NCBI GenBank assembly: GCA_963555825.3
Contig: CAUVXB020000001.1
Location: 288,001 to 352,000 of the forward strand
Length of the DNA: 64,000 nucleotides
Direction: 5' to 3'
DNA from: Alphaproteobacteria bacterium
GTDB lineage: Bacteria > Pseudomonadota > Alphaproteobacteria > JAAXGF01
Shown here: piece by piece, positions 48,986 through 60,075 of the stretch
Layout: each line of letters opens with the position of its first letter
How positions within the stretch are numbered: the stretch's first letter is position 1
Translations under genes and position numbers: made by a program
The notes under the pieces: generated by a model
What the model was told of the DNA's origin: nothing
What the model saw: the letters and a program-made list of their open reading frames with translations, nothing else
Database searches by the model: none

Positions 48986-49470
48986 GCGCGTTGCTCGAAA
49001 GGCCTGCGGTTGTGCGCGTCCGCGCGGCATTGACCGCCGCCGGCTCGACCGCCGAGATCATCGCGCTCGCCGATACCGCGCGCTCGGCCCAGGACGCGGC
49101 CCGGAGCGTCGGCGTCGAATTGGGCGCCATCGTCAAGTCGCTGGTCTTCGCGGTCGACAGCCGCGCGGTCATGGCGCTGGTCGCCGGCGACCGGCGCTGC
49201 GACACCGCCGCGCTCGCCCGCGCGCTCGGCCTCGACGGCAAGGTCGGCCGCGCCGACGCCGACATGGTGCGCGAGGCCACCGGCTTCACCATCGGCGGCG
49301 TGCCGCCGATCGCGCATACGACGCCGCTCGCGACCGCGATCGACGCGAGCCTCGGCCGCTTCGCCATCGTCTACACCGCCGCCGGCCACCCGCATTGCGT
49401 CTTCGGCACGTCGCCCGACGAACTCGCCCGGCTGACCGGCGCGCCGGTGGTCGAGGATATCGGCGTCTAG
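48982..49470 (+). CDS. YbaK/EbsC family protein
   Basis: IVKSLVF, VREATGFTIGGVPP, AAGHP. Confidence 0.88.
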   Translation: MSALLERPAVVRVRAALTAAGSTAEIIALADTARSAQDAARSVGVELGAIVKSLVFAVDSRAVMALVAGDRRCDTAALARALGLDGKVGRADADMVREATGFTIGGVPPIAHTTPLATAIDASLGRFAIVYTAAGHPHCVFGTSPDELARLTGAPVVEDIGV

Positions 49471-49619
49471 ACGCGTGGCCCAGGGCGGCGTTGTTGACAC
49501 GCCCTGGGGCGCTCTTTAGATAACGCGGAGCGCGCCGCGTCCGCGGCGTTCGCGCTGGTGGGGTGGCCGAGGTCATCGAGGCAGCCTTGCGAACGGGTGC
49601 CGAACGGTAACCGCGCCCA

Positions 49620-49858
49620 TTGGCACCGGTAATCATTTCATCGAGGTTTGCATAGACGAAAGCGACCGCGATTGGGCGATGCCGCACACGGGATCACGTG
49701 GCTGCGGCAATCGCATCGGAACCTACTTCACCCAGCGGGCCAAGAGCGAAATGGAGCACTGGTTCATCAAATTGCCCGACAAGGACTTGGCCTACTTGGT
49801 CGAAGGCTCCGAACAGTTCGGTGACTACGTTCAGGCGGTCGGCTGGGCGCAACGATAG
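49620..49858 (+). pseudogene. rtcB: Internal fragment of RtcB RNA ligase
   Basis: GTGNHFIEVCIDESDRDWAMPHTGSRGCGNRIGTYF...LPDKDLAYLVEG...YVQAVGWAQ*; no start codon. Confidence 0.85.
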
Positions 49859-49936
49859 GCGGGCAACGCCGCGGGGTCTGCTTCCCGCCCGTTAGCAGAC
49901 CTTAGAGACATTGAATCGCGGGACAGGGTGTTCGAC

Positions 49937-51695
49937 GCCGGCTTACCGTTCGAAATCGGACACCGCGCGGCGCTTCCGCCAACGTCTGCCGTTGACCCAG
50001 CCTGTGTAAAAACGTCGATGGTGTTATGATTCTCTCGTGCTTTGGCGGGAGGGTCTGATGAAGCGTTTTGTCGAGGGTGTCGATCGCAGCCAGGGCACGT
50101 TGTTTCCGGAGCGCCTGGAAGACTGGATCGGCGACGACAACCCGGTTCGGGCGATCGACGTCTTCGTCGATGAGCTCGATCTTGGCGGCCTCGGGTTCGA
50201 CCGGGTCGAGCCGCTGGCGACCGGCAGGCCGGCCTATCATCCTTGCGATTTGTTGAAGCTCTACATCTACGGCTATCTCAACCGGGTTCAGTCGAGCCGT
50301 CGGCTCGAGAGGGAGGCCGGGCGCAATGTGGAAGTGATGTGGCTGGTCGGCCGGCTGGCGCCGGATCACAAGACGATCGCCGACTTCCGCAAGGACAACG
50401 GCCGTGCGATCCGCAAGGTCTGCGCCCGGTTCGTCGCGCTGTGCCGGCAACTCGGGCTGTTCGCCGAGGCGAGCGTGGCGATCGATGGCTCGAAGTTCAA
50501 GGCGGTCAACAGCCGGGACAGGAACTTCACGCGGGCCAAGATGGCGCGGCGGGTGGCGCAGATCGAGGAGAGCGTTGCGCGCTATCTGGACCAGTTGGAC
50601 AGCGCCGACCGGCAAGAGCCGTCGCTGGCGCGCACGACCAAGACGACTCGTCTGGCCGACAAGATCGCGATCCTCAAGGAGGAGATGCGGCGCCTGAAGG
50701 CGCTTGAAGTCGAGCGGCGTGCGAGCCCGGACCAGCAGATCTCTCTGAGCGATCCCGATGCCCGCTCGATGGCGACGAGCGGCCGGGGTTCCGGCGTGGT
50801 CGGCTACAACGTTCAGGCCGCCGTCGACACCAAGCACCACCTGATCGTCGCCCACGAGGTGACCAATCAGGGCACCGACCGCGTCCAGCTCTCAGCCATG
50901 GCGAAGCGGACCAAGGCGGCTCTGGAGACCGACGAGTTGGATGTCGTTGCCGATCGCGGCTACTACAACGGCAAGGAGATTCTGGCCTGCGATGAGGCCG
51001 GCATCACCGTCACATTGCCTAAGCCGCTGACCTCTGGAGCCAAGGCCAAGGGCCGCTTCGGCAAACAGGACTTCGTCTATCTGGCCGCCGACGATGTCTA
51101 TCGCTGCCCGGCCGGCGAGCGTTTGGTCTACCGCTTCACCAGCCAGGAGAGGGGGCTGAGCATGCGGCGCTACTGGACCAACGCCTGTCAGGGATGCGCC
51201 ATCAAGCATCGCTGCACCACGGCCAAGCAGCGCCGCATCACCCGCTGGCAGCACGAGCATGTTCTCGAGGCCGTCGAGAGGCGGCTCGACGAGCACCCGG
51301 AGGCGATGCGTCGGCGGCGCGAGACGGCCGAGCATCCCTTCGGCACCATCAAGTCCTGGATGGGCGCGACGCATTTCCAGACGAAGACGCTGAAACGGGT
51401 GAGGACCGAGATGGCCCTGCACGTGCTGGCCTACAATCTCAAGCGCGTCATGAACATCACGGGCATCGACCCGCTGATCGCGGCGATGAGGACCGCATAG
51501 GCCTCTCTGCGCCGCAAATTGCGCCCATATCCGGCCAAATCGCAGCTCACACCGGCGCCAGCCGGCCGACAGGTCCGCACGAGTGGCGAAAATCCTTAAT
51601 CCCGGAATACCCGCCGCGACGGATCATCGAAGCCAAAGACGCGCCGTACAGATCACGCAGCAAACGTTCTTACACAGTCTGGACCCGAAGCAGAC
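49937..51695 (+). repeat. 71-bp double-hairpin repeat, unit A (49937-49997 plus 51686-51695), interrupted by IS1182
   Basis: GCCGGCTTACCGTTCGAAATCGGAC-N22-GTCTGCCGTTGACC|CGAAGCAGAC; same layout as unit B. Confidence 0.75.
49998..51681 (+). mobile_element. IS1182-family element; intact transposase 50058-51500
   Basis: IRs CAGCCTGTGTAAAAACG / CGTTCTTACACAGTCTG, GACC duplication, motifs SSRRLERE, PDHKTIADFR, IDGSK, ADRGY, EHPFGTIK. Confidence 0.93.
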
Positions 51696-51808
51696 ATAGC
51701 GGGGAGCCGGATCAGCCCTTCCCAGAAACCGTGCTAGGACTAACGTAGGAACTGGTACAAATAATGGGGTAGGGCCACCCCATTGATTAGATTTACGCGA
51801 CTTTTAAG

Positions 51809-53449
51809 CCGACATTCCCCAGATGATATCCAAATTCGCGGAAATCGTACCACGGCCCCAACTCCAAGGGAACTCTGTTCCCATTGCAGCCATCCGATGA
51901 CATGATTTTGGTAATCGGCCAGCGCGTGGAAGGCCATTTGGTCGTTTCTCTTGCCATCCAGACACACCTCTCGTGTCGCAATCTCCTTGCCGTCGATTCC
52001 CTCGGCCTACGCCGGAGCGGGTCTTCGTCGTAGATCATCAATCAGGCTCAAGATTTTCTGGAACAAGCTTCTGGGACTGCAACCTCGGCCAATTGAAATG
52101 TGACGTACCGGCCATGGCTGACAACTTTCGCACCGATCTTGACCAGCTTCTCCCTCAGCGTCGTCAGCGACCATTGCTCCACGGCATCGGGCAACGCCAG
52201 GGTACGCATGAAGTTGCCGAGGTTATAGGCGAGTGCATGCAGCTGGAGCCGGACGGCATTGTTGCGTAACGAACGGCATGACAGCCGCGTCCACTTGATG
52301 GCGTTCTTGCCTTCCTTGATCCATTGCTCGGCAGTGCCGCGCTGATTGTAGAACGCAACAACCCGCTCGGCAGGACGGCTCAGGTTGGTGACGATGAAGC
52401 CGACGCGGGGATACAGTTCCCCTGAGTGCCACTCCACCTTGGCGACGACCCGGCGGGGCTTCGTCCAGCTACCGGCCCGATAGCTGAAGTTCGCGTAATA
52501 CCGACGAACTTCCTTCGGCGGCCGACCGACGGGGCGCTTGAGCAGGTGCGCGATGCTGTCGTGCAGCACCTTGTTGGCCGGAAGCCGGATGGCGTACTTG
52601 AAGCCTTCCGCTTCCAGAAACTCATAAACCTCGGGCGAGGCGAAGGCGGCGTCACCACGGAAATAACGCCGGAGTGTCTTGTTCCGGTATCGAGCGACCA
52701 CCGGGTCCAACACATCGCGCCATTCATGGGCGCTGTGCACGTTGCCCGGACGCAGGGCGCAACGCTCCAGATCGCCGAACTGGTTGAACACGAACAGCGG
52801 GTGATAGCACGTGCAGCCGAAGTGACCGTTGTAGGCCGTGCCCTCCTGGTCACCGTAGGTCGGGCTGACGGAGCTGTCCATGTCGAGCACGATAATCTTC
52901 GGCGGCTTGCGCTCGTTAACCTGGTCGATCCAGATGCCCAAAAGGTCAGCGAGCGCGGCGAGGTTGTCATTGGTGGCGAGTAACTCCGTCTCGAACCGGC
53001 CCATCTGGCTGGTCGATGCGCCGCCGCGCTCGACAGCCCTGCCGCCGACGATCCACCGCATCGCAGGATCGCGCCCCAGCCGGTCGGCGTCGTTCACGTC
53101 CTCGTACCCGGCGAGACGACCATAGACGGATTGGCGAAGGAGACCGATGATGCCGTGCCAACCGTTCTTGCCGGTCCGGCTGTCAGCAATAACGTCACCG
53201 GCCAGCGTGGTCAGGCCGAGGGCTTCGTCCAGTTCACGATAGGCGAGCAGACCAGCGTCTGACGTGATCCGCGAACCGTGGAACTCGAACTTCAGTCTTC
53301 GGTCGAAAAACGCCCGCAGAAGCCCCCGATCCGACTCACCCTCCAGGTTCCGCATTCGACCCACCCTCCGTCTGATCTAATCCACTGATTCTTATACAGG
53401 AATCAGACGGAAACCGCATCAGATGGATCGGTCACTTGGGGAATGCGGG
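51809..53449 (-). mobile_element. IS1380-family element, diverged isoform (no internal TAG; frameshift near the C-terminus)
   Basis: Same terminal motifs, TTAAG duplication; CTCYHP intact; ends AVPEACSRKS, with the ILSLIDDLRRRPAPA tail out of frame. Confidence 0.9.
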
Positions 53450-53459
53450 TTAAGACTAA

Positions 53460-55871
53460 GTGGGCGATCTCATGAATTTGGACCTCGGCCAGACCACCTC
53501 ATGCGGCGGCGCAGACTTTTACGTCGTAATCAAGGAGCAAGGACACAAAGACCCCGATCTGCCTGTCTGGACCTGCACTGAACCCGGAAGTATCCGTTAT
53601 CATGAACGACCTGCTGCTGTCGTAGAACGCAAAGACTTGTCAGAAATCACCGGCGCTTTTCATCTGTTGAATGTGCTGAGCGACGAGGAATGCGATCGTT
53701 TTGTGCAAATCAGTGAAGCTTTGGGCTATCACGGCGATGCTCCTGTTTCACTCCCACGCAGTATTCGTCACAACAATAATCTGAACTGGATCGTTGATGA
53801 GAGTGTGGACGGCCCGATCTGGGGTCGTTGTCGAAGTTTCTTTGGAGTTTCCGCATTCGATGGTCAACATCCGTTGGGCCTCAATGCCAGATTTAGGTTC
53901 TACCGTTATCCGACATTCCCCATATACCATCCAAATTCGTGGAAATCGTAGCACTTTCCCACCGCCAAGGGAACTGTATCCCCTATGCAGCCATCCGATG
54001 GCATGATTTTGGTAATCGGCCCGCGCTTGGAAGGCCACTCGGTCATTTTTCTCGCCATCCAGACACACCTCTCCTGTCGCTTTCTCCTCGCCGTCGATTC
54101 CCTCGGCCTACGCCGGAGCGGGTCTTCGTCGCAGATCATCAATCAAGCTCAGGATTTTCCGGAACAGGTCCCTCGGCACCGCCACCTCAGCCAATTGGAA
54201 CGTAACGTAGCGGCCATGTCGGACAACCTTGGCCCCGATCTTCACCAGCTTGTCGCGCAACGTCGTCATCGACCAGTGCTCCACCTCCTTCGGCAAAGCC
54301 AGTGTCCTCATGAAGTTGCCCAGATTGTAGGCCAGGGCGTGAAGCTGGAGCCGAACGGCATTGTTGCGGAACTTGCGACATGACAGACGGGTCCAGTTGA
54401 TGGCGTTCTTGCCTTCCTTGATGTGCTGCTCCGCCGTGCCACGGTGATTATAGAACGCCACCACCCGCTTGGTAGGGCGCGACAGATTAGTGACGATGAA
54501 ACCGACGCGAGGAACCAGCTCGCCGGGGTGCCACTCCACTTTGGCCACGACACGGCGCTTCTTGTTCCACGATCCGGCCTGATAGCTGAAGCTGGCGTGG
54601 AAACGGCGAACATGGTCGGGCGGGCGACCGACAGGTCGCGTAAGCAGATGGGCAATGTTCCGCTGGAGAATCGCGTTCGCTTTGAGGCGGATGACGTAGA
54701 GTAATCCCTCGGCTTCGAGATATTCGTATATCTCCGGTGAGGCGAAGGCGGCATCGCCACGAAAATACAGCCGCACCTTCCTTTCCTTATAGCGCATCAC
54801 CACCGGCTCCAGAACATTCCGCCATCCGTCGGCACTGTGAACATTACCGGGGCGCAGGGAACATCTCTCCAAGTCGCCGAACTGGTTGAACAGGAATAGC
54901 GGATGCTAGCAGGTACAGCCGAAGTGACCATTGTACGCTGTTCCCTCTTGTTCGCCATGGGTCGGGCTGACGCTGCTGTCCATGTCGAGAATGATCATCT
55001 TCGGCGGATGGCGGTCATGAACCTTGTCGATCCACACCCCGTTCATGTCGACCAAGGCTTCAACGTTCTCGTCGGTGGCCAATAGCTCCGTCTCGAAGCG
55101 TCCCATCTGGCTGGTGGAAGCGGCCTGTCTTTCGATGGCCTTGCCGCCAACAATCCAGCGCATGGCGGGATCGCGTCCCAGACGGTCGGCGTCGTTCACA
55201 TCGTCATAGCCGCCAAGGCGCCCGAAAACGGACTGGCGAAACTGACCCGTCATGCCGTGCCATCCGTTCTTGCCGGTACGGCTATCCTGGAAAACACCCT
55301 CGGCCATCTCAGTCAGGCCGAGGGCATCGTCAAGCTCCCGGTAGGCGAGCAACCCGGCATCAGAGGTGATCTTGGAACCGTGGAATTCAAGCTTCAATCG
55401 ACGGTCAAAAACGACCCGAAGGCACCCCGGTTTCGATTCACCCATCGGGTGTGCCATATCCGCCGCTCCATGTATGCTACAACTTCATGATTCTTATAGC
55501 AGAATCGCCTTCTCGCCGCACTGAATATCGACGATACTTGGGAAATGCGGGGTTATAGTAGGGGCGATTTTTTCGACCCCCACACAGATGGTGCATGGCC
55601 AGGTAGTCGGGTCGTCAATGGCCAACTCGTGGCTGATGCATATGGCGATCGGCTAAGCCAAATGACGGTTCTGATTTTTTTGTCTGATGGGTACGAGGGT
55701 GGTCGCACCTTGTTCCACACGGGCCAGACATCAATCGTCCCAGTTCATACACCGAAGGGGGCGATCTTGTGCTTCCCCCATGGCATGCATCCCCAGCACT
55801 GCATTCATGCTGGCGAGGAAGTGACGGCTGGGCAAAAGTACATTATCCGGACCGATGTGTTGTATGGCTGA
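53460..55871 (+). pseudogene. 2OG-Fe(II) oxygenase (prolyl-4-hydroxylase-like) split by IS1380
   Basis: GLNARFRFYRY|SRGDFFDPHTDG...HAGEEV..GQKYIIRTDVLY rejoins in frame; lower GC than the host genes. Confidence 0.88.
53910..55551 (-). mobile_element. IS1380-family element, copy 3 (same internal TAG)
   Basis: Matches 17010-18651; GTTAT duplication. Confidence 0.93.
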
Positions 55872-56231
55872 TTGACGACGCCAGATTGCCCTACTCCACG
55901 AATACGCGGGTTGGGCAAGGAGGTAATCCGGCTCCTCAACCTCGCTCCTCTAAGCCTGCTGGCGGCTATGAGGAGGCATCCATCCGAATGGCATTTGTCA
56001 GCTTACCGCTCGAAAGCGGACGCCCAGCGTGTCAGCCGCCGAGGTCTGCTCCTGACCCAGGCTGTGTAAAAACCGCCCCCGAGCGCTATTGGCACGATTT
56101 TCTCTGACTTCTCGAATTTCTAAACTCAACAAAATCAACATCTTATCAGACCACCTATAGAAGAATTGACCGGGAATAGAAGAATTGACTGGGAACTCTC
56201 CTGTTAGTGGTATTTGCCGGCGTTTTTACAC

Positions 56232-57592
56232 ATGGCGTAACTCGGGGATCGGGCACTGCTCTCCTTAATGTAGCAACGACCGGCATGGGCCGGGCGAGCA
56301 CACTGAAAGAGCAGGAGAGCAGCTATGGAACTGTATGTTGGAATGGATGTATCGCTCAAGGAGACCTCGATCTGCGTGGTCGATGACAACGGCGAGATCG
56401 TGTCCGAGGGCGTGGTGATCTCGGAGCCGGCGGCAATCGCGGCGTATATCAGGACAACGGCGCCGCACGCAAAGCGCATCGGTCTGGAGACCGGTCCGAC
56501 GACGACCTGGCTGTGGCATGAGCTCAGGGCGCTCGGCTTGCCGGTGATCTGCATCGATGCGCGTCATGCCAAGGCGGCGCTGTCGATGCAGATCAACAAG
56601 AGCGACCGGAACGATGCCGCCGGGATCGCGCGGATCATGCAGTGCGGTTGGTACAAGGAGGTCCAAGTCAAGAGCGTGGCGTGCCACGAGATACGGGCCG
56701 TCCTGAACAGCCGGGCCCAGTTGGTCAAGATCAAGCGTGATCTCGAGAACCAGATCCGTGGCTTGCTCAAGAACCTCGGCCTCGTCATCGGCAAGGCGGG
56801 CGGCAATGTCTTCCGTCGCCGGGTCGAAGAGCTGCTTGGCGGGCAGGGTCTTTTGTCGGAGGCCGTTCGGCCCCTTCTGGAAGTCCGCGAGAAGGTCGGC
56901 CGAGAGATCGCCGCGCTCTATCGCAAGCTGCTGGGCCTGGCGCGGAACGACGAGGACAGCAGACGTTCCATGACGGTTCCAGGCATCGGGCCGATCACCG
57001 CCTTGGCCTTCCACTCGGCGATCGACGAGCCGAGCCGCTTCCGACGTTCCCGGAGTGTCGGCGCGTACATCGGGCTGACGCCGCGCCGCCATGCTTCCGG
57101 CGAGGTCGATTGGACGGGGCGGATCTCCAAATGCGGCGATCGAATGCTCAGGACCTACCTCTTCGAGGCGGCCGGCGTGCTGCTCACCCGGGTGCCGCGA
57201 TGGTGCGCGCTCAAGGCCTGGGGTCACAGGTTGTGGAAACGCATCGGCTTCAAGAAGGCCAAGATCGCCGTGGCACGGAAGCTGGCGGTCATCCTCCATC
57301 GCATGTGGCGTGATGGAACGGACTTCATCTGGTCAACCAAAGAGGCGGCCGCATAGGGAAACAACGTCCAAGCATTCCGCGAGAGCGGAACCGATGCCCC
57401 TGTCGGGACGGCGGCGTCGGCGAGATCGATCCAGGCTTTGCGATGCCTCACCGAGGCAAGCGCGCTTCACACATTGATCCGCCAACGTCCTCCAACGCCA
57501 TCATGCGGAGGGCCGAGCCCCTACCGCGGAGAGAACAGTGAACCCGGCAGGTACGTCACGGAGAGCTTGACAACCAACCCCCGAGTTAGAGA
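56232..57592 (+). mobile_element. IS110 family, IS1111 group; DEDD recombinase 56325-57356
   Basis: [50 protein letters not shown]; subterminal IRs TAACTCGGGG / CCCCGAGTTA; long 3' non-coding end; no target duplication. Confidence 0.93.
57357..57592 (+). ncRNA. Putative bridge RNA/seekRNA (second copy at 57987-58222)
   Basis: Contains TCCAGGCT and TTCACACA (matching the target flanks) and ACGCCAT and AGAGAACA (matching the donor junction), with internal hairpins such as GCCTC-ACC-GAGGC. RNA ends are not determinable from sequence. Confidence 0.75.
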
Positions 57593-58222
57593 ACGTTCCA
57601 TGACGGTTCCAGGCATCGGGCCGATCACCGCCTTGGCCTTCCACTCGGCGATCGACGAGCCGAGCCGCTTCCGACGTTCCCGGAGTGTCGGCGCGTACAT
57701 CGGGCTGACGCCGCGCCGCCATGCTTCCGGCGAGGTCGATTGGACGGGGCGGATCTCCAAATGCGGCGATCGAATGCTCAGGACCTACCTCTTCGAGGCG
57801 GCCGGCGTGCTGCTCACCCGGGTGCCGCGATGGTGCGCGCTCAAGGCCTGGGGTCACAGGTTGTGGAAACGCATCGGCTTCAAGAAGGCCAAGATCGCCG
57901 TGGCACGGAAGCTGGCGGTCATCCTCCATCGCATGTGGCGTGATGGAACGGACTTCATCTGGTCAACCAAGGAGGCGGCCGCATAGGGAAACAACGTCCA
58001 AGCATTCCGCGAGAGCGGAACCGATGTCCCTGTCGGGACGGCGGCGTCGGCGAGATCGATCCAGGCTTTGCGATGCCTCACCGAGGCAAGCGCGCTTCAC
58101 ACATTGATCCGCCAACGTCCTCCAACGCCATCATGCGGAGGGCCGAGCCCCTACCGCGGAGAGAACAGTGAACCCGGCAGGTACGTCACGGAGAGCTTGA
58201 CAACCAACCCCCGAGTTAGAGA
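57593..58222 (+). repeat. 630-bp tandem duplicate of the IS110 3' part (56963-57592)
   Basis: Direct repeat with two visible substitutions (57341/57971 and 57397/58027). Confidence 0.92.
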
Positions 58223-58504
58223 ACAGCCTGGACCCGTTGCGGGCATGACGCGGCATGGCGAAATTGGTCTGCAAGCCTGGGGCGATCTCGCCGACACCGT
58301 TCGGCGTGCTTACGCCCTTCGACCGGAAGGACGTTCACACCTCACCCGACAGGGAGATCGCTTCCGCCCTTGCGGAAATCATGGGGGTTGTTGCTTCTAA
58401 GCGGCCGCCTACCTGGCTGACCAGATGAAATCAGTTTCATCACGCGACATGCGATGCAGCATGACAAAGCCCCCGCGGGCACTTCGGATCGGAATCGGAG
58501 CGGC

Positions 58505-58687
58505 GGCGAGAGCGGCATGACCATGATCGTGGTGACCCATGAAATGGACTTCGCCCGCACAGTCGCCGACGAGATGGTTTTCATGGACGACGGTCGCATC
58601 ATCGAATCGGCTCTGCCCGACGCGTTCTTCTCGACGACCAAGAGCGACTGCACCAAGCTGTTCCTGAGCCAGATTCTATCGCATTGA
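58505..58687 (+). pseudogene. 3' remnant of a polar amino-acid ABC transporter ATPase
   Basis: GMTMIVVTHEMDFARTVADEMVFMDDGRIIE...FLSQILSH; Walker A/B absent. Confidence 0.8.
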
Positions 58688-58900
58688 CGGGCCCGGTTCG
58701 CCGCCGGTGTCGGGCTTTTGCCGTAGGGCCGGGAGTCACCTCCTGCCTGTCCCTCCAGTTCATCTCATTCGGGCCACCAACGGATTCTTCGCCGCCGCCG
58801 GCGACGCGCTTCTCATCGAAACGCAGGTGTAGCGTGACAAGGCGATGGAGGGGTGAAGTGAGCGCGTTCCGAATGCCGGTTGCCGGCCGTAGCCATATCA

Positions 58901-60075
58901 TACCAGTGAGCGCCTGAATTGACTCTCGGGATATTCATTGATGGCGGATGATGGCGGATTGTGATTCTATGGTCTCCCACCAGATGTGGGGGATGTCATG
59001 GGATCAGCACTCAAGATACGGGATGATTTGACGCCTTTGGAGCTTCGGCGCTGGGCTCGCGTGGAATCGTACGGTCGAGCGGCGGCGCGGGCCTATGGGA
59101 TCGCGAATGCTTTGGAGGAGATGCCCCGGGCTGATGCCGCGCGGCTTGCGGGGATGGATCGCCAAACGCTTCGCGACGCGGTTGTTCGTTACAATGCAAA
59201 GGGATTGGAGGGGCTTCACGACCGTCCAAAGGGCTACTCGCCGCGGCGGCTGACGGCAGACGAGGAAGCGGCGCTGGCGGCGGTCATCATCGCCGGGCCG
59301 GAGCCTGAGCGCGACGGGGTTTGCGCCTGGACCCGGGCCGATCTGTGCCGCTGGCTGGAGGAGCGCTTCGCCAAGACCTACCACCCCTCGAGCATGACCC
59401 GGGTTCTACGGCGGATGGGATTTTCCCGCCAGAAGGCGCGCCCGAGCCACCCGCGAAGGGACGCCGAAGCGCAGGAGCGCTTCAAAAAAGGGGGCTTCGC
59501 GACATCCTGAAGGCGACCGCCGCGGCGCATCCCGACAAGCGCCTACAGCTGTGGTTTCAGGATGAAGCGCGCGTCGGCAACAAGGGCCGGGTGTGTCACC
59601 GGTGGTGGCGCAGGGGCGAGCGTGCCCCCGGGACGCGTCAAATCGGCTACCAGTGGGCCTACATCTTCTCCGCCGTGCGCCCGGACACCGGCGACGACGT
59701 CACCCTGGTGATGCCGAGCGTCAACGCCAAGGTCATGGACCTGTTTCTCGCACACTTCGCCGATACCCTGGACCAGGATGCGCACGCCGTCATGATGTGC
59801 GACGGCGCCGGTTGGCACGACGAGCGCGCCCTCACCGTCCCCGACAACGTCACCTTGGCGCTGTTGCCGCCTTACAGTCCCGAACTCAACCCCGTCGAGC
59901 GGGTTTGGCTCTACCTACGCGAACGCTTCCTATCGCTCCGCGTCCTCGACGACACCGAGGCCATCATCGACGCCTGTTGCCAAGCATGGATCGACCTCAT
60001 CGCAGAACCGGATCGTATGCGAACCCTCTGCGCCTATCCATGGATCATGAAGGTGATTTCATAGGCTCACTGGTA
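58901..60075 (+). mobile_element. IS630-family element type B, copy 5
   Basis: Same sequence, inverted; flanked by TCA/TCA, which is the amidase stop codon. Confidence 0.93.

Follow-up and report, generated by a model that had tools for sequence, protein, structure and literature searches.

The DNA described here is a window of 64,000 nucleotides from an alphaproteobacterial genome (G000:C1:288001-352000), and its subject is the element at 56232-57594, which we read as an intact insertion sequence (IS) of the IS1111 group of the IS110 family whose 3′ non-coding region would encode a two-loop bridge RNA, or seekRNA, targeting IS1182-type ends. We put the probability of this reading at about 0.88. 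Coordinates are window positions and features lie on the forward strand unless indicated otherwise, positions prefixed C1 or C2 refer to contigs of the same genome, and the published comparisons draw on parts of three papers (PMC11187229, PMC11208160 and PMC12288879).

The element is complete, runs from ATGGCG at 56232 to GAGAAC at 57594, and measures 1363 bp with one copy of an AC core counted. Its transposase/recombinase gene (56325-57356) encodes a 343-amino-acid (aa) protein with matches to PF01548 (the DEDD, RuvC-like N-terminal domain; 1.7e-16) and PF02371 (the C-terminal domain; 1.8e-22), scoring 252 bits against NF033542, 'IS110 family RNA-guided transposase', for which the cutoff is 140. 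The protein has the motifs GMDVS, GLETG and KSDRNDA, and at residue 250 a GL-P----SG motif that aligns with GLTPRRYESG of IS621; the C-terminal domain also aligns to the IS621 transposase structure 8wt6, with ASG over ESG. A GL-P----S/TG motif is that of IS1111-family transposases (PMC11187229). Perfectly complementary 10 bp subterminal inverted repeats, TAACTCGGGG at 56238-56247 and CCCCGAGTTA at 57579-57588, fall within the roughly 7-17 bp of the IS1111 group and vary jointly at both ends among relatives (TAATTCCGGG paired with CCCGGAATTA), and beyond them lie terminal extensions of 6 nt on the left (ATGGCG) and 6 nt on the right (GAGAAC, core included). There are 93 nt of non-coding DNA upstream of the gene as against 238 nt downstream, which is the IS1111-group layout. 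A search of a plasmid collection matched only generic 'IS110 family transposase' names, and no ISfinder name could be assigned from it.

Four short segments in the 3′ non-coding region correspond to the target and to the element's own ends, as the original prediction had proposed. With the guide and strand rules of PMC11208160, the right target guide (RTG), TCCAGGCT at 57430-57437, is the complement of the right flank AGCCTGGA; the left target guide (LTG), TTCACAC at 57466-57472, has the same sense as the left flank plus core; the right donor guide (RDG), ACGCCAT at 57495-57501, is complementary at 7/7 positions to the right donor half (RD), ATGGCGT at 56232-56238, which is the left terminal extension; and the left donor guide (LDG), AGAGAAC at 57530-57536, is identical at 7/7 positions to the right end at 57588-57594. 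The left target and left donor segments had first been placed as 8-nt sequences, TTCACACA at 57466-57473 and AGAGAACA at 57530-57537. In 20000 dinucleotide-preserving shuffles of the 238-nt region the four matches arose singly 41, 530, 455 and 199 times, at least two together in 22 shuffles, at least three in one, and all four in none.

The same region has a conserved fold. Folding 56 distinct non-coding regions with RNAalifold gives 42 consensus pairs in which 98.9% of cells are paired, five of them with compensatory (two-sided) changes; none of 500 shuffles scored as high, and slid controls were 36-44% paired. The conserved structured block at 57395-57570 is the predicted bridge RNA, its ends being estimated from the alignment. 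The target-binding loop (57414-57488) has an outer stem joining 57414-57428 to 57475-57488 and an inner stem-loop at 57439-57464, with RTG on its 5′ side (57429-38) and LTG on its 3′ side (57465-74); alignment pair 90/149 in this loop is AU in 30 sequences, UA in 23 and GU in 3, and the inner hairpin folds in 54 of the 56 sequences despite 46 distinct sequences. The donor-binding loop (57491-57541) has an inner stem-loop at 57504-57528, RDG on its 5′ side (57493-503) and LDG on its 3′ side (57529-39), and its closing pair 162/214 is CG in 25 sequences, UA in 15 and UG in 15. The guides thus sit on opposing sides of internal loops in the conserved fold, and within each loop the complement of the top strand comes first, which is the guide order of IS1111 seekRNAs and the reverse of that in IS110-type elements (PMC11187229). 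Single-sequence folds gave modest z-scores of -2.3 and -1.4 with part of the guides paired, and the comparative fold was relied on instead. Contigs from four RNA libraries in two studies span the non-coding region with 0-2 differences (57266-57594, 57398-57594 and 57466-57594), a weak hint of expression; no joined ends of a circle were reported among them.

BLAST finds five further full copies in the genome, making six with that of the window, at 99.6-99.9% identity. The left flanks of all six read ...GGCG(G/T)TTTT(T/C)ACAC, and the right flanks read AG(C/T)CTGGACCC in five and AGCCTAGT in one. These six and one partial copy occupy the same site in the same orientation, with the interior of the host element always on the left; no copy was found at an unrelated site, the arrangement that the original prediction had named as telling against it. 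Each junction has a single AC and the IS1111-type element makes no target duplication, from which it follows that the target TTTTAC-AC-AGCCTGGA and the circle junction AGAGA-AC-ATGGCGT (hyphens mark the core and the crossover) had been reconstructed correctly. In the window the left junction (56224-56238) reads TTTTAC-AC-ATGGCGT and the right junction TTAGAGA-AC-AGCCTGGA, with the element side ending at 58224 and the flank at 58225-58232.

The occupied host is a miniature inverted-repeat transposable element (MITE) with IS1182-type terminal repeats. Its body at 56058-56231 includes the left target TTTTAC (56224-56229) and the core AC (56230-56231), and comparison of flanks places the right target half at 58225-58234, consisting of AGCCTG, the last 6 nt of the MITE repeat, and the GACC target-site duplication; the other copy of GACC lies at 56054-56057 and the repeat of it at 58231-58234. 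Removal of the insertion leaves a MITE of 180 bp (56058-56231 plus 58225-58230) with GACC on both sides, which shares only its terminal repeats with the IS1182 copies. The crossover is therefore 6 bp inside the tip of the repeat, and the 8-nt right half comprises 6 nt of repeat and the GA of the GACC duplication. An inverted copy of the target lies 176 bp upstream.

A full IS1182-family element of 1684 bp lies nearby at 49998-51681, between GACC at 49994-97 and GACC at 51682-85. Its 487-aa open reading frame (ORF; 50037-51500) scores 451 bits against NF033551, 'IS1182 family' (cutoff 270), and has the Pfam domains DUF772, DDE_Tnp_1 and DDE_Tnp_1_6. The genome contains about 28-35 copies, of which 19 are intact at 1682-1686 bp; 17 of these 19 have identical 4-bp duplications, mostly GACC but also matched GGCT, GAAC and GTCC. 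The terminal repeats are ~17 bp, CAG(C/A)CTGTGTAA(A/G)AACG, and the ends read CAG(C/A)CTGTGTAAAAACG... and ...CGTTCTTACACAGTCTG.

A genome scan allowing up to three mismatches to the 15-nt site defined by the guides returned 107 matches. IS1182 right ends (CTTACAC-AGTCTGGA) differ from the guides at three positions, as do IS1182 left ends, which mostly read TTTACAC-AG(T/G)CTGGG (an end of the left type written as a 15-nt site is TTTACAC-AGTCTGGG); MITE ends, TTTACAC-AGCCTGG(A/G), differ at one or two. All six insertions are in the ends of ~180-bp MITEs, and the full IS1182 copies, of which there are at least 26, hold none of them. In this genome the MITE ends fit the guides best, and only MITE ends are occupied. 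The near-matching empty sites that had been pointed out at the left end of the MITE and at both IS1182 ends are located at 56056-56070 (reverse strand), at 49996-50010 (reverse strand; IS1182 left end) and at 51669-51683 (forward strand; CTTACACAGTCTGGA, IS1182 right end). The proposal that the target is the inverted repeat of another transposon stands as to the repeat and is refined in that the ends used in this genome are those of MITEs, not of full IS1182 elements, and that the site includes 2 nt of GACC.

The strongest support for the target guides comes from relatives, in which the covariation of guide and target that had been suggested as a check is found. We collected 80 homologous loci whose transposases are 69-90% identical in amino acid sequence, and in 66 of these both ends could be defined from the conserved subterminal repeats; one of odd length (L047) and three with a short flank or N (L062, L072 and L073) were left out, giving 63 scored elements including that of the window. 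Their non-coding regions align over the full length. LTG (57466-72) equals the left flank, position by position, in 63, 62, 56, 63, 63, 63 and 63 of the 63 elements, even though four of its seven positions vary (TTCACAC, TTTACAC, CTCACAC, TTGCAAC, CTGCAAC, TTTCAAC, CTTCAAC, TATCAAC and TTTCGAC), and the reverse complement of RTG (57430-37) equals the right flank in 57, 47, 40, 57, 54, 55, 56 and 54, examples of matching right guides and flanks being AGCCAAGA, AGCCAGGG, AGCCTCGG, AAAATCGG, AAAATCTG, AGCATCGA and AACCAAGA. One class found in relatives combines a CAAC-type left guide with the right guide class AAAATCGG. When guides and flanks were re-paired over 52 unique sets, none of 10000 permutations reached the observed sum on either side (395 against a permuted 316±8 on the left, and 376 against 286±10 on the right). 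Three elements (L020, L060 and L065) have one left mismatch each. The assignment of the target guides is thus supported on both sides. Donor pairing is plausible: RD and RDG agree over 7-9 positions with slight and only partly joint variation, and a few pairs covary, such as ATGGGAT with ATGGCAT in three elements.

Judged from these flanks and their surroundings, the target specificity is that of the whole clade, not of the window element alone. At 22 of the homologous loci the left end of the IS1111-type element is only 22-230 bp away from where an IS1182-type coding region stops, and these regions lie on either strand, indicating that both IS1182 repeats are used. All five hosts sampled for Pfam architecture have DUF772, DDE_Tnp_1 and DDE_Tnp_1_6, and all three sampled for NF033551 match it. 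An inverted copy of the element's own target lies 145-225 bp upstream, a MITE-like arrangement, in 16 of the 66 loci in addition to the window. Elements with CACAC-type left targets adjoin hosts that are 62-78% identical to the window IS1182 transposase (9/9), and those of the CAAC type adjoin hosts that are only 23-47% identical (13/13). On plasmid pNK6c of Bradyrhizobium diazoefficiens a broken gene annotated 'ISPsy6, transposase' (NF033551 at 9e-53) has, at a distance of 137 bp, an IS110-family neighbor whose flanks and guides match (left GTTTTCACAC, right AGCCAGGGTC, LTG TTCACAC, RTG CCCCTGGCT). The broader proposal, that a widespread and mainly alphaproteobacterial IS1111-group clade is an RNA-guided parasite of the IS1182 family, with guides that diversified along with IS1182-subfamily and MITE repeats, with host ends crippled by insertion and with off-target right-end duplications, has in our judgment a slightly better than even chance of being correct.

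Several observations weigh against an RNA-guided element aimed at IS1182-type ends, or fit it imperfectly. LTG (TTCACAC) has one mismatch to the flank (TTTACAC) in five of the six local copies, the genome-wide scan found no perfect 15-nt site, and three MITE ends of exactly the occupied type have no insertion. Among the relatives, right flanks do not fit their own RTG in five elements (L003, L008, L034, L059 and L076), and a host element went unrecognized within 1.5 kb of flank at 28 of 66 loci. On the donor side the left donor half (LD) and LDG, AGAGAAC, are invariant across the alignment and offer no variation to compare; in 45 of 67 elements RD (ATGGGGT) and RDG are complementary at 8/9 positions and always mismatched at position 5, which seems not to be read, and several singletons disagree at two or three positions. 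The core-facing guide positions are non-complementary, unlike those of IS621 (1/2 for RTG and 0/2 for RDG). A scan of 49000-60000 against Rfam 15, with E values up to 1, gave only a chance snoRNA-like match and no bridge-RNA family, and the RNA-library contigs show neither RNA ends nor strand and may reflect DNA carry-over. The IS110/IS1111 RNA-guided model that had been invoked at the outset is borne out for the family and, through covariation and the two-loop fold, for the target guides, while the donor guides are only consistent with it.

By analogy with IS621, ISEc11, ISPa11 and ISKpn4, on which the action of the segments as RNA, the circular intermediate and the strand-exchange chemistry are modeled, RTG and LTG in the target loop would recognize the two strands of an IS1182-type target, and RDG and LDG in the donor loop would recognize the joined circle ends. 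A DEDD/serine recombinase with its guide RNA would then exchange strands at the shared AC, inserting the element in one orientation and making no duplication, at a site formed by the terminal inverted repeat of IS1182-family elements and MITEs, with recognition reaching 2 nt into the host GACC. It could be supposed instead that recognition of the IS1182-type repeat is done by the recombinase protein and that the non-coding matches are incidental or historical, for example a captured target. A conserved repeat is indeed something that a DNA-binding protein could recognize, and invariant donor-side segments would suit a fixed protein site, but we regard this as very improbable given that both guide blocks vary with the flanks over 27 guide pairs in elements whose transposases are still 69-90% identical, that the stems enclosing the loops of these blocks show compensatory changes, and that RNA dependence has been shown experimentally for relatives (PMC11187229; PMC11208160).

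A marginally more credible alternative, still quite unlikely, is that the segments act as DNA, for instance as internal pseudo-target and pseudo-donor sites in synapsis or regulation. Compensatory stem changes, together with a hairpin that keeps its structure as its sequence varies, point rather to a folded single strand; RNA-library contigs cover the non-coding region, and homologous RNAs co-purify with their transposases (PMC11187229). Set against these are the facts that sequence covariation alone cannot tell DNA from RNA, that the library contigs show no RNA ends, and that in one local copy recombination took place at the DNA of LTG itself, a duplication at C1:936502 beginning right after TTCACAC. 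The remaining explanation, to which we give as little credence as to recognition by the protein, is that the real target is a repetitive extragenic palindromic (REP)-like sequence entered by IS1182 elements and MITEs, the association with transposon ends being a by-product. RTG does extend 2 nt into the flanking GACC, and a ...GAC motif recurs at positions 18-20 of the right flanks in 30 of 65 elements; however, the whole left half and six of the eight nucleotides of the right half lie inside the repeat of the host element, the interior of the host element is always on the left, and the REP-like portion, which is free to vary, falls outside the guide footprint. We therefore retain a bridge RNA that reads IS1182-type ends as the preferred explanation.

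The span given in the original prediction, 56222-58234, is not a single element: the full element is followed by a 630-bp tandem copy of its right end, which the prediction did not mention. This partial copy (57595-58224) corresponds to 56965-57594 with two differences (99.68% over 632 nt) and contains a second full guide-RNA gene (RTG 58060-67, LTG 58096-58102, RDG 58125-31, LDG 58160-66). The first right end lies at 57594 and is followed by the tandem copy, so that the true right flank (AGCCTGGACC...) appears only after the second right end, from 58225. At the duplication junction, what comes after the right end ...GAGAAC is the same sequence as that after an internal AC. Partial tandem copies of the right end follow four of the six full local copies (630 bp, ~124 bp, two of ~205 bp, and 23 bp), at window 57595-58224, at C1:936502-936625, at C2:1372885-1372476 and on C1 just after 1666187; each begins just after an internal AC and stops at the true right end. 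Among the 66 homologous loci such a duplication occurs only in L047 (142 bp). One junction, that at C1:936502, falls exactly at the DNA of LTG (TTCACAC-ATTGATCC). These structures suggest action of the recombinase at AC pseudo-sites, by nested insertion and homologous deletion or by unequal exchange. A common pseudo-site sought at the four local junctions and in L047 amounted to AC and the one case coinciding with LTG, with no consistent likeness to the left target or left donor half.

Other remnants of related elements are present. One on the reverse strand at 58273-58465, ~40 bp to the right of the MITE, comprises the 3′ end of a transposase gene and the non-coding region, is 79-89% identical to the window element in inverted orientation, contains an extra insert of ~45 nt, and ends just after its RTG (CCCCAGGCTT). 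Decayed solo right-end fragments that lack the transposase gene lie at C2:2842537-2842355 and C2:840560-840646. The former keeps both loops, has a different right guide (CCGAGGTA) and adjoins AGCCTCGGCC, a joint change of guide and flank within one genome; its sequence is also seen as a loose end in RNA-library contigs. The MITE at C1:1664544-1664823 is occupied at both ends, by a full IS1111-type copy and by an inverted, truncated left end (131 bp, 93% identical), and in one local copy the transposase gene is lengthened, in frame, by 33 bp inserted at element position 141 (C1:935247-935279).

The right end also has a candidate promoter. TTGACA at 57567-57572 is nearly invariant (TTGA is invariant and the next C at least 90% conserved in the alignment) and is a candidate -35 box; with 18 nt and then GAAC-AT, which is formed only by joined ends, it could possibly constitute a circle-junction promoter, the candidate -10 position reading GAACAG in the integrated form. 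Junction promoters have been described for related elements (PMC11187229; PMC12288879).

At least four IS families are crowded together in the region from 49.9 to 58.5 kb. The IS1182 element and the MITE both insert into a REP-like palindrome, approximately GTCTGC-N4-GACC-N4-GCAGAC, duplicating GACC (49941-49997 and 56001-56057 in the window, and flanks genome-wide). This insertion site accounts for a 73-nt repeat outside the IS1182 and MITE ends; the idea that the repeat, upstream of the left ends, is a diverged IS1111 non-coding region was rejected, as it is the REP-like site common to IS1182 copies. Several IS1182 copies contain, at a TA in their right terminal repeat, an IS630-family element of ~1.18 kb (NF033545), as at C2:1095850-1097160. 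This second occupant of the repeat is present in six of 28 listed IS1182 copies; its two ORFs overlap and seem to be frameshifted at an A/T run, and its identical junctions suggest that it and the IS1182 copy spread together. A pair of IS1380-family copies (NF033539) lies side by side at 51809-55500; they are 81-88% identical and spaced 2102 bp apart, and the second looks degraded.

The mechanism proposed here is already known, and it is the choice of an IS1182-type target that seems not to have been written up. Our literature searches, which covered neither ISfinder nor the supplements of PMC11187229 and PMC11208160, where this class of target may be listed, found no paper linking IS1111-type elements to IS1182 ends or MITEs; the papers naming both IS1111 and IS1182 are, judged from their listings, genome surveys. 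The value lies in the series of guides and targets and in the ecology of one transposon upon another, not in a new mechanism. With 27 distinct guide pairs in a nearly constant scaffold, the relatives form a natural reprogramming series for an IS1111-type bridge RNA, which would define its footprint (a left guide of 7 nt including the AC core, a right guide of 8 nt, and right-hand guides unpaired with the core), appears to tolerate one mismatch at position 3 of the left guide, and could aid engineering of this less-studied branch. If the reading is correct, an insertion 6 bp inside the tip of the repeat would cripple that end of the host, and the right-end duplications would be off-target recombinase products at AC pseudo-sites that multiply the guide-RNA gene. 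One transposon family would then systematically use, and probably disable, the ends of another.

The nearest precedent for such a relationship is that of IS4321 and IS5075, IS1111-group elements that reportedly insert into the terminal repeat of Tn21-type transposons at one position and in one orientation. Like them, the window element has subterminal inverted repeats and a fixed position and orientation in the terminal repeat of another transposon. Unlike them, its hosts are an IS1182-family DDE element and MITEs and not Tn3/Tn21 transposons, its site consists of the tip of the repeat plus 2 nt of the host target duplication, and it belongs to a whole clade with graded guide variants matching host subfamilies.

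With ISEc11, ISPa11, ISKpn4 and ISPst6 it shares the long downstream non-coding region, the top-strand complement on the 5′ side, the GL-P----S/TG motif and a transposase length (343 aa) within their range of 330-350 aa; in contrast to the IS1182-type ends used here, they target a short linear site, REP sequences or attC sites, and typical terminal extensions are 7 and 3 bp (PMC11187229), compared with 6 and 6 nt in the window element. A core dinucleotide shared by target and donor and a homologous C-terminal domain with the SG serine are features in common with IS621; it differs from IS621 in encoding its RNA at the right end instead of the left, in the reversed order of guides within the loops, in having AC as its core, in right-hand guides that leave the core unpaired, and in a subterminal repeat of 10 bp instead of 2-3 bp (PMC11208160). 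Finally, ISPpu9 resembles the window element in having behind it an additional module that is delimited by a shared dinucleotide and a repeat of an end sequence, a layout suggesting alternative recombination products; in ISPpu9, a REP-targeting IS110-group element, the module is a distinct small-RNA gene, ssr9 (PMC12288879), whereas the module found here simply repeats part of the right end of the element it follows.

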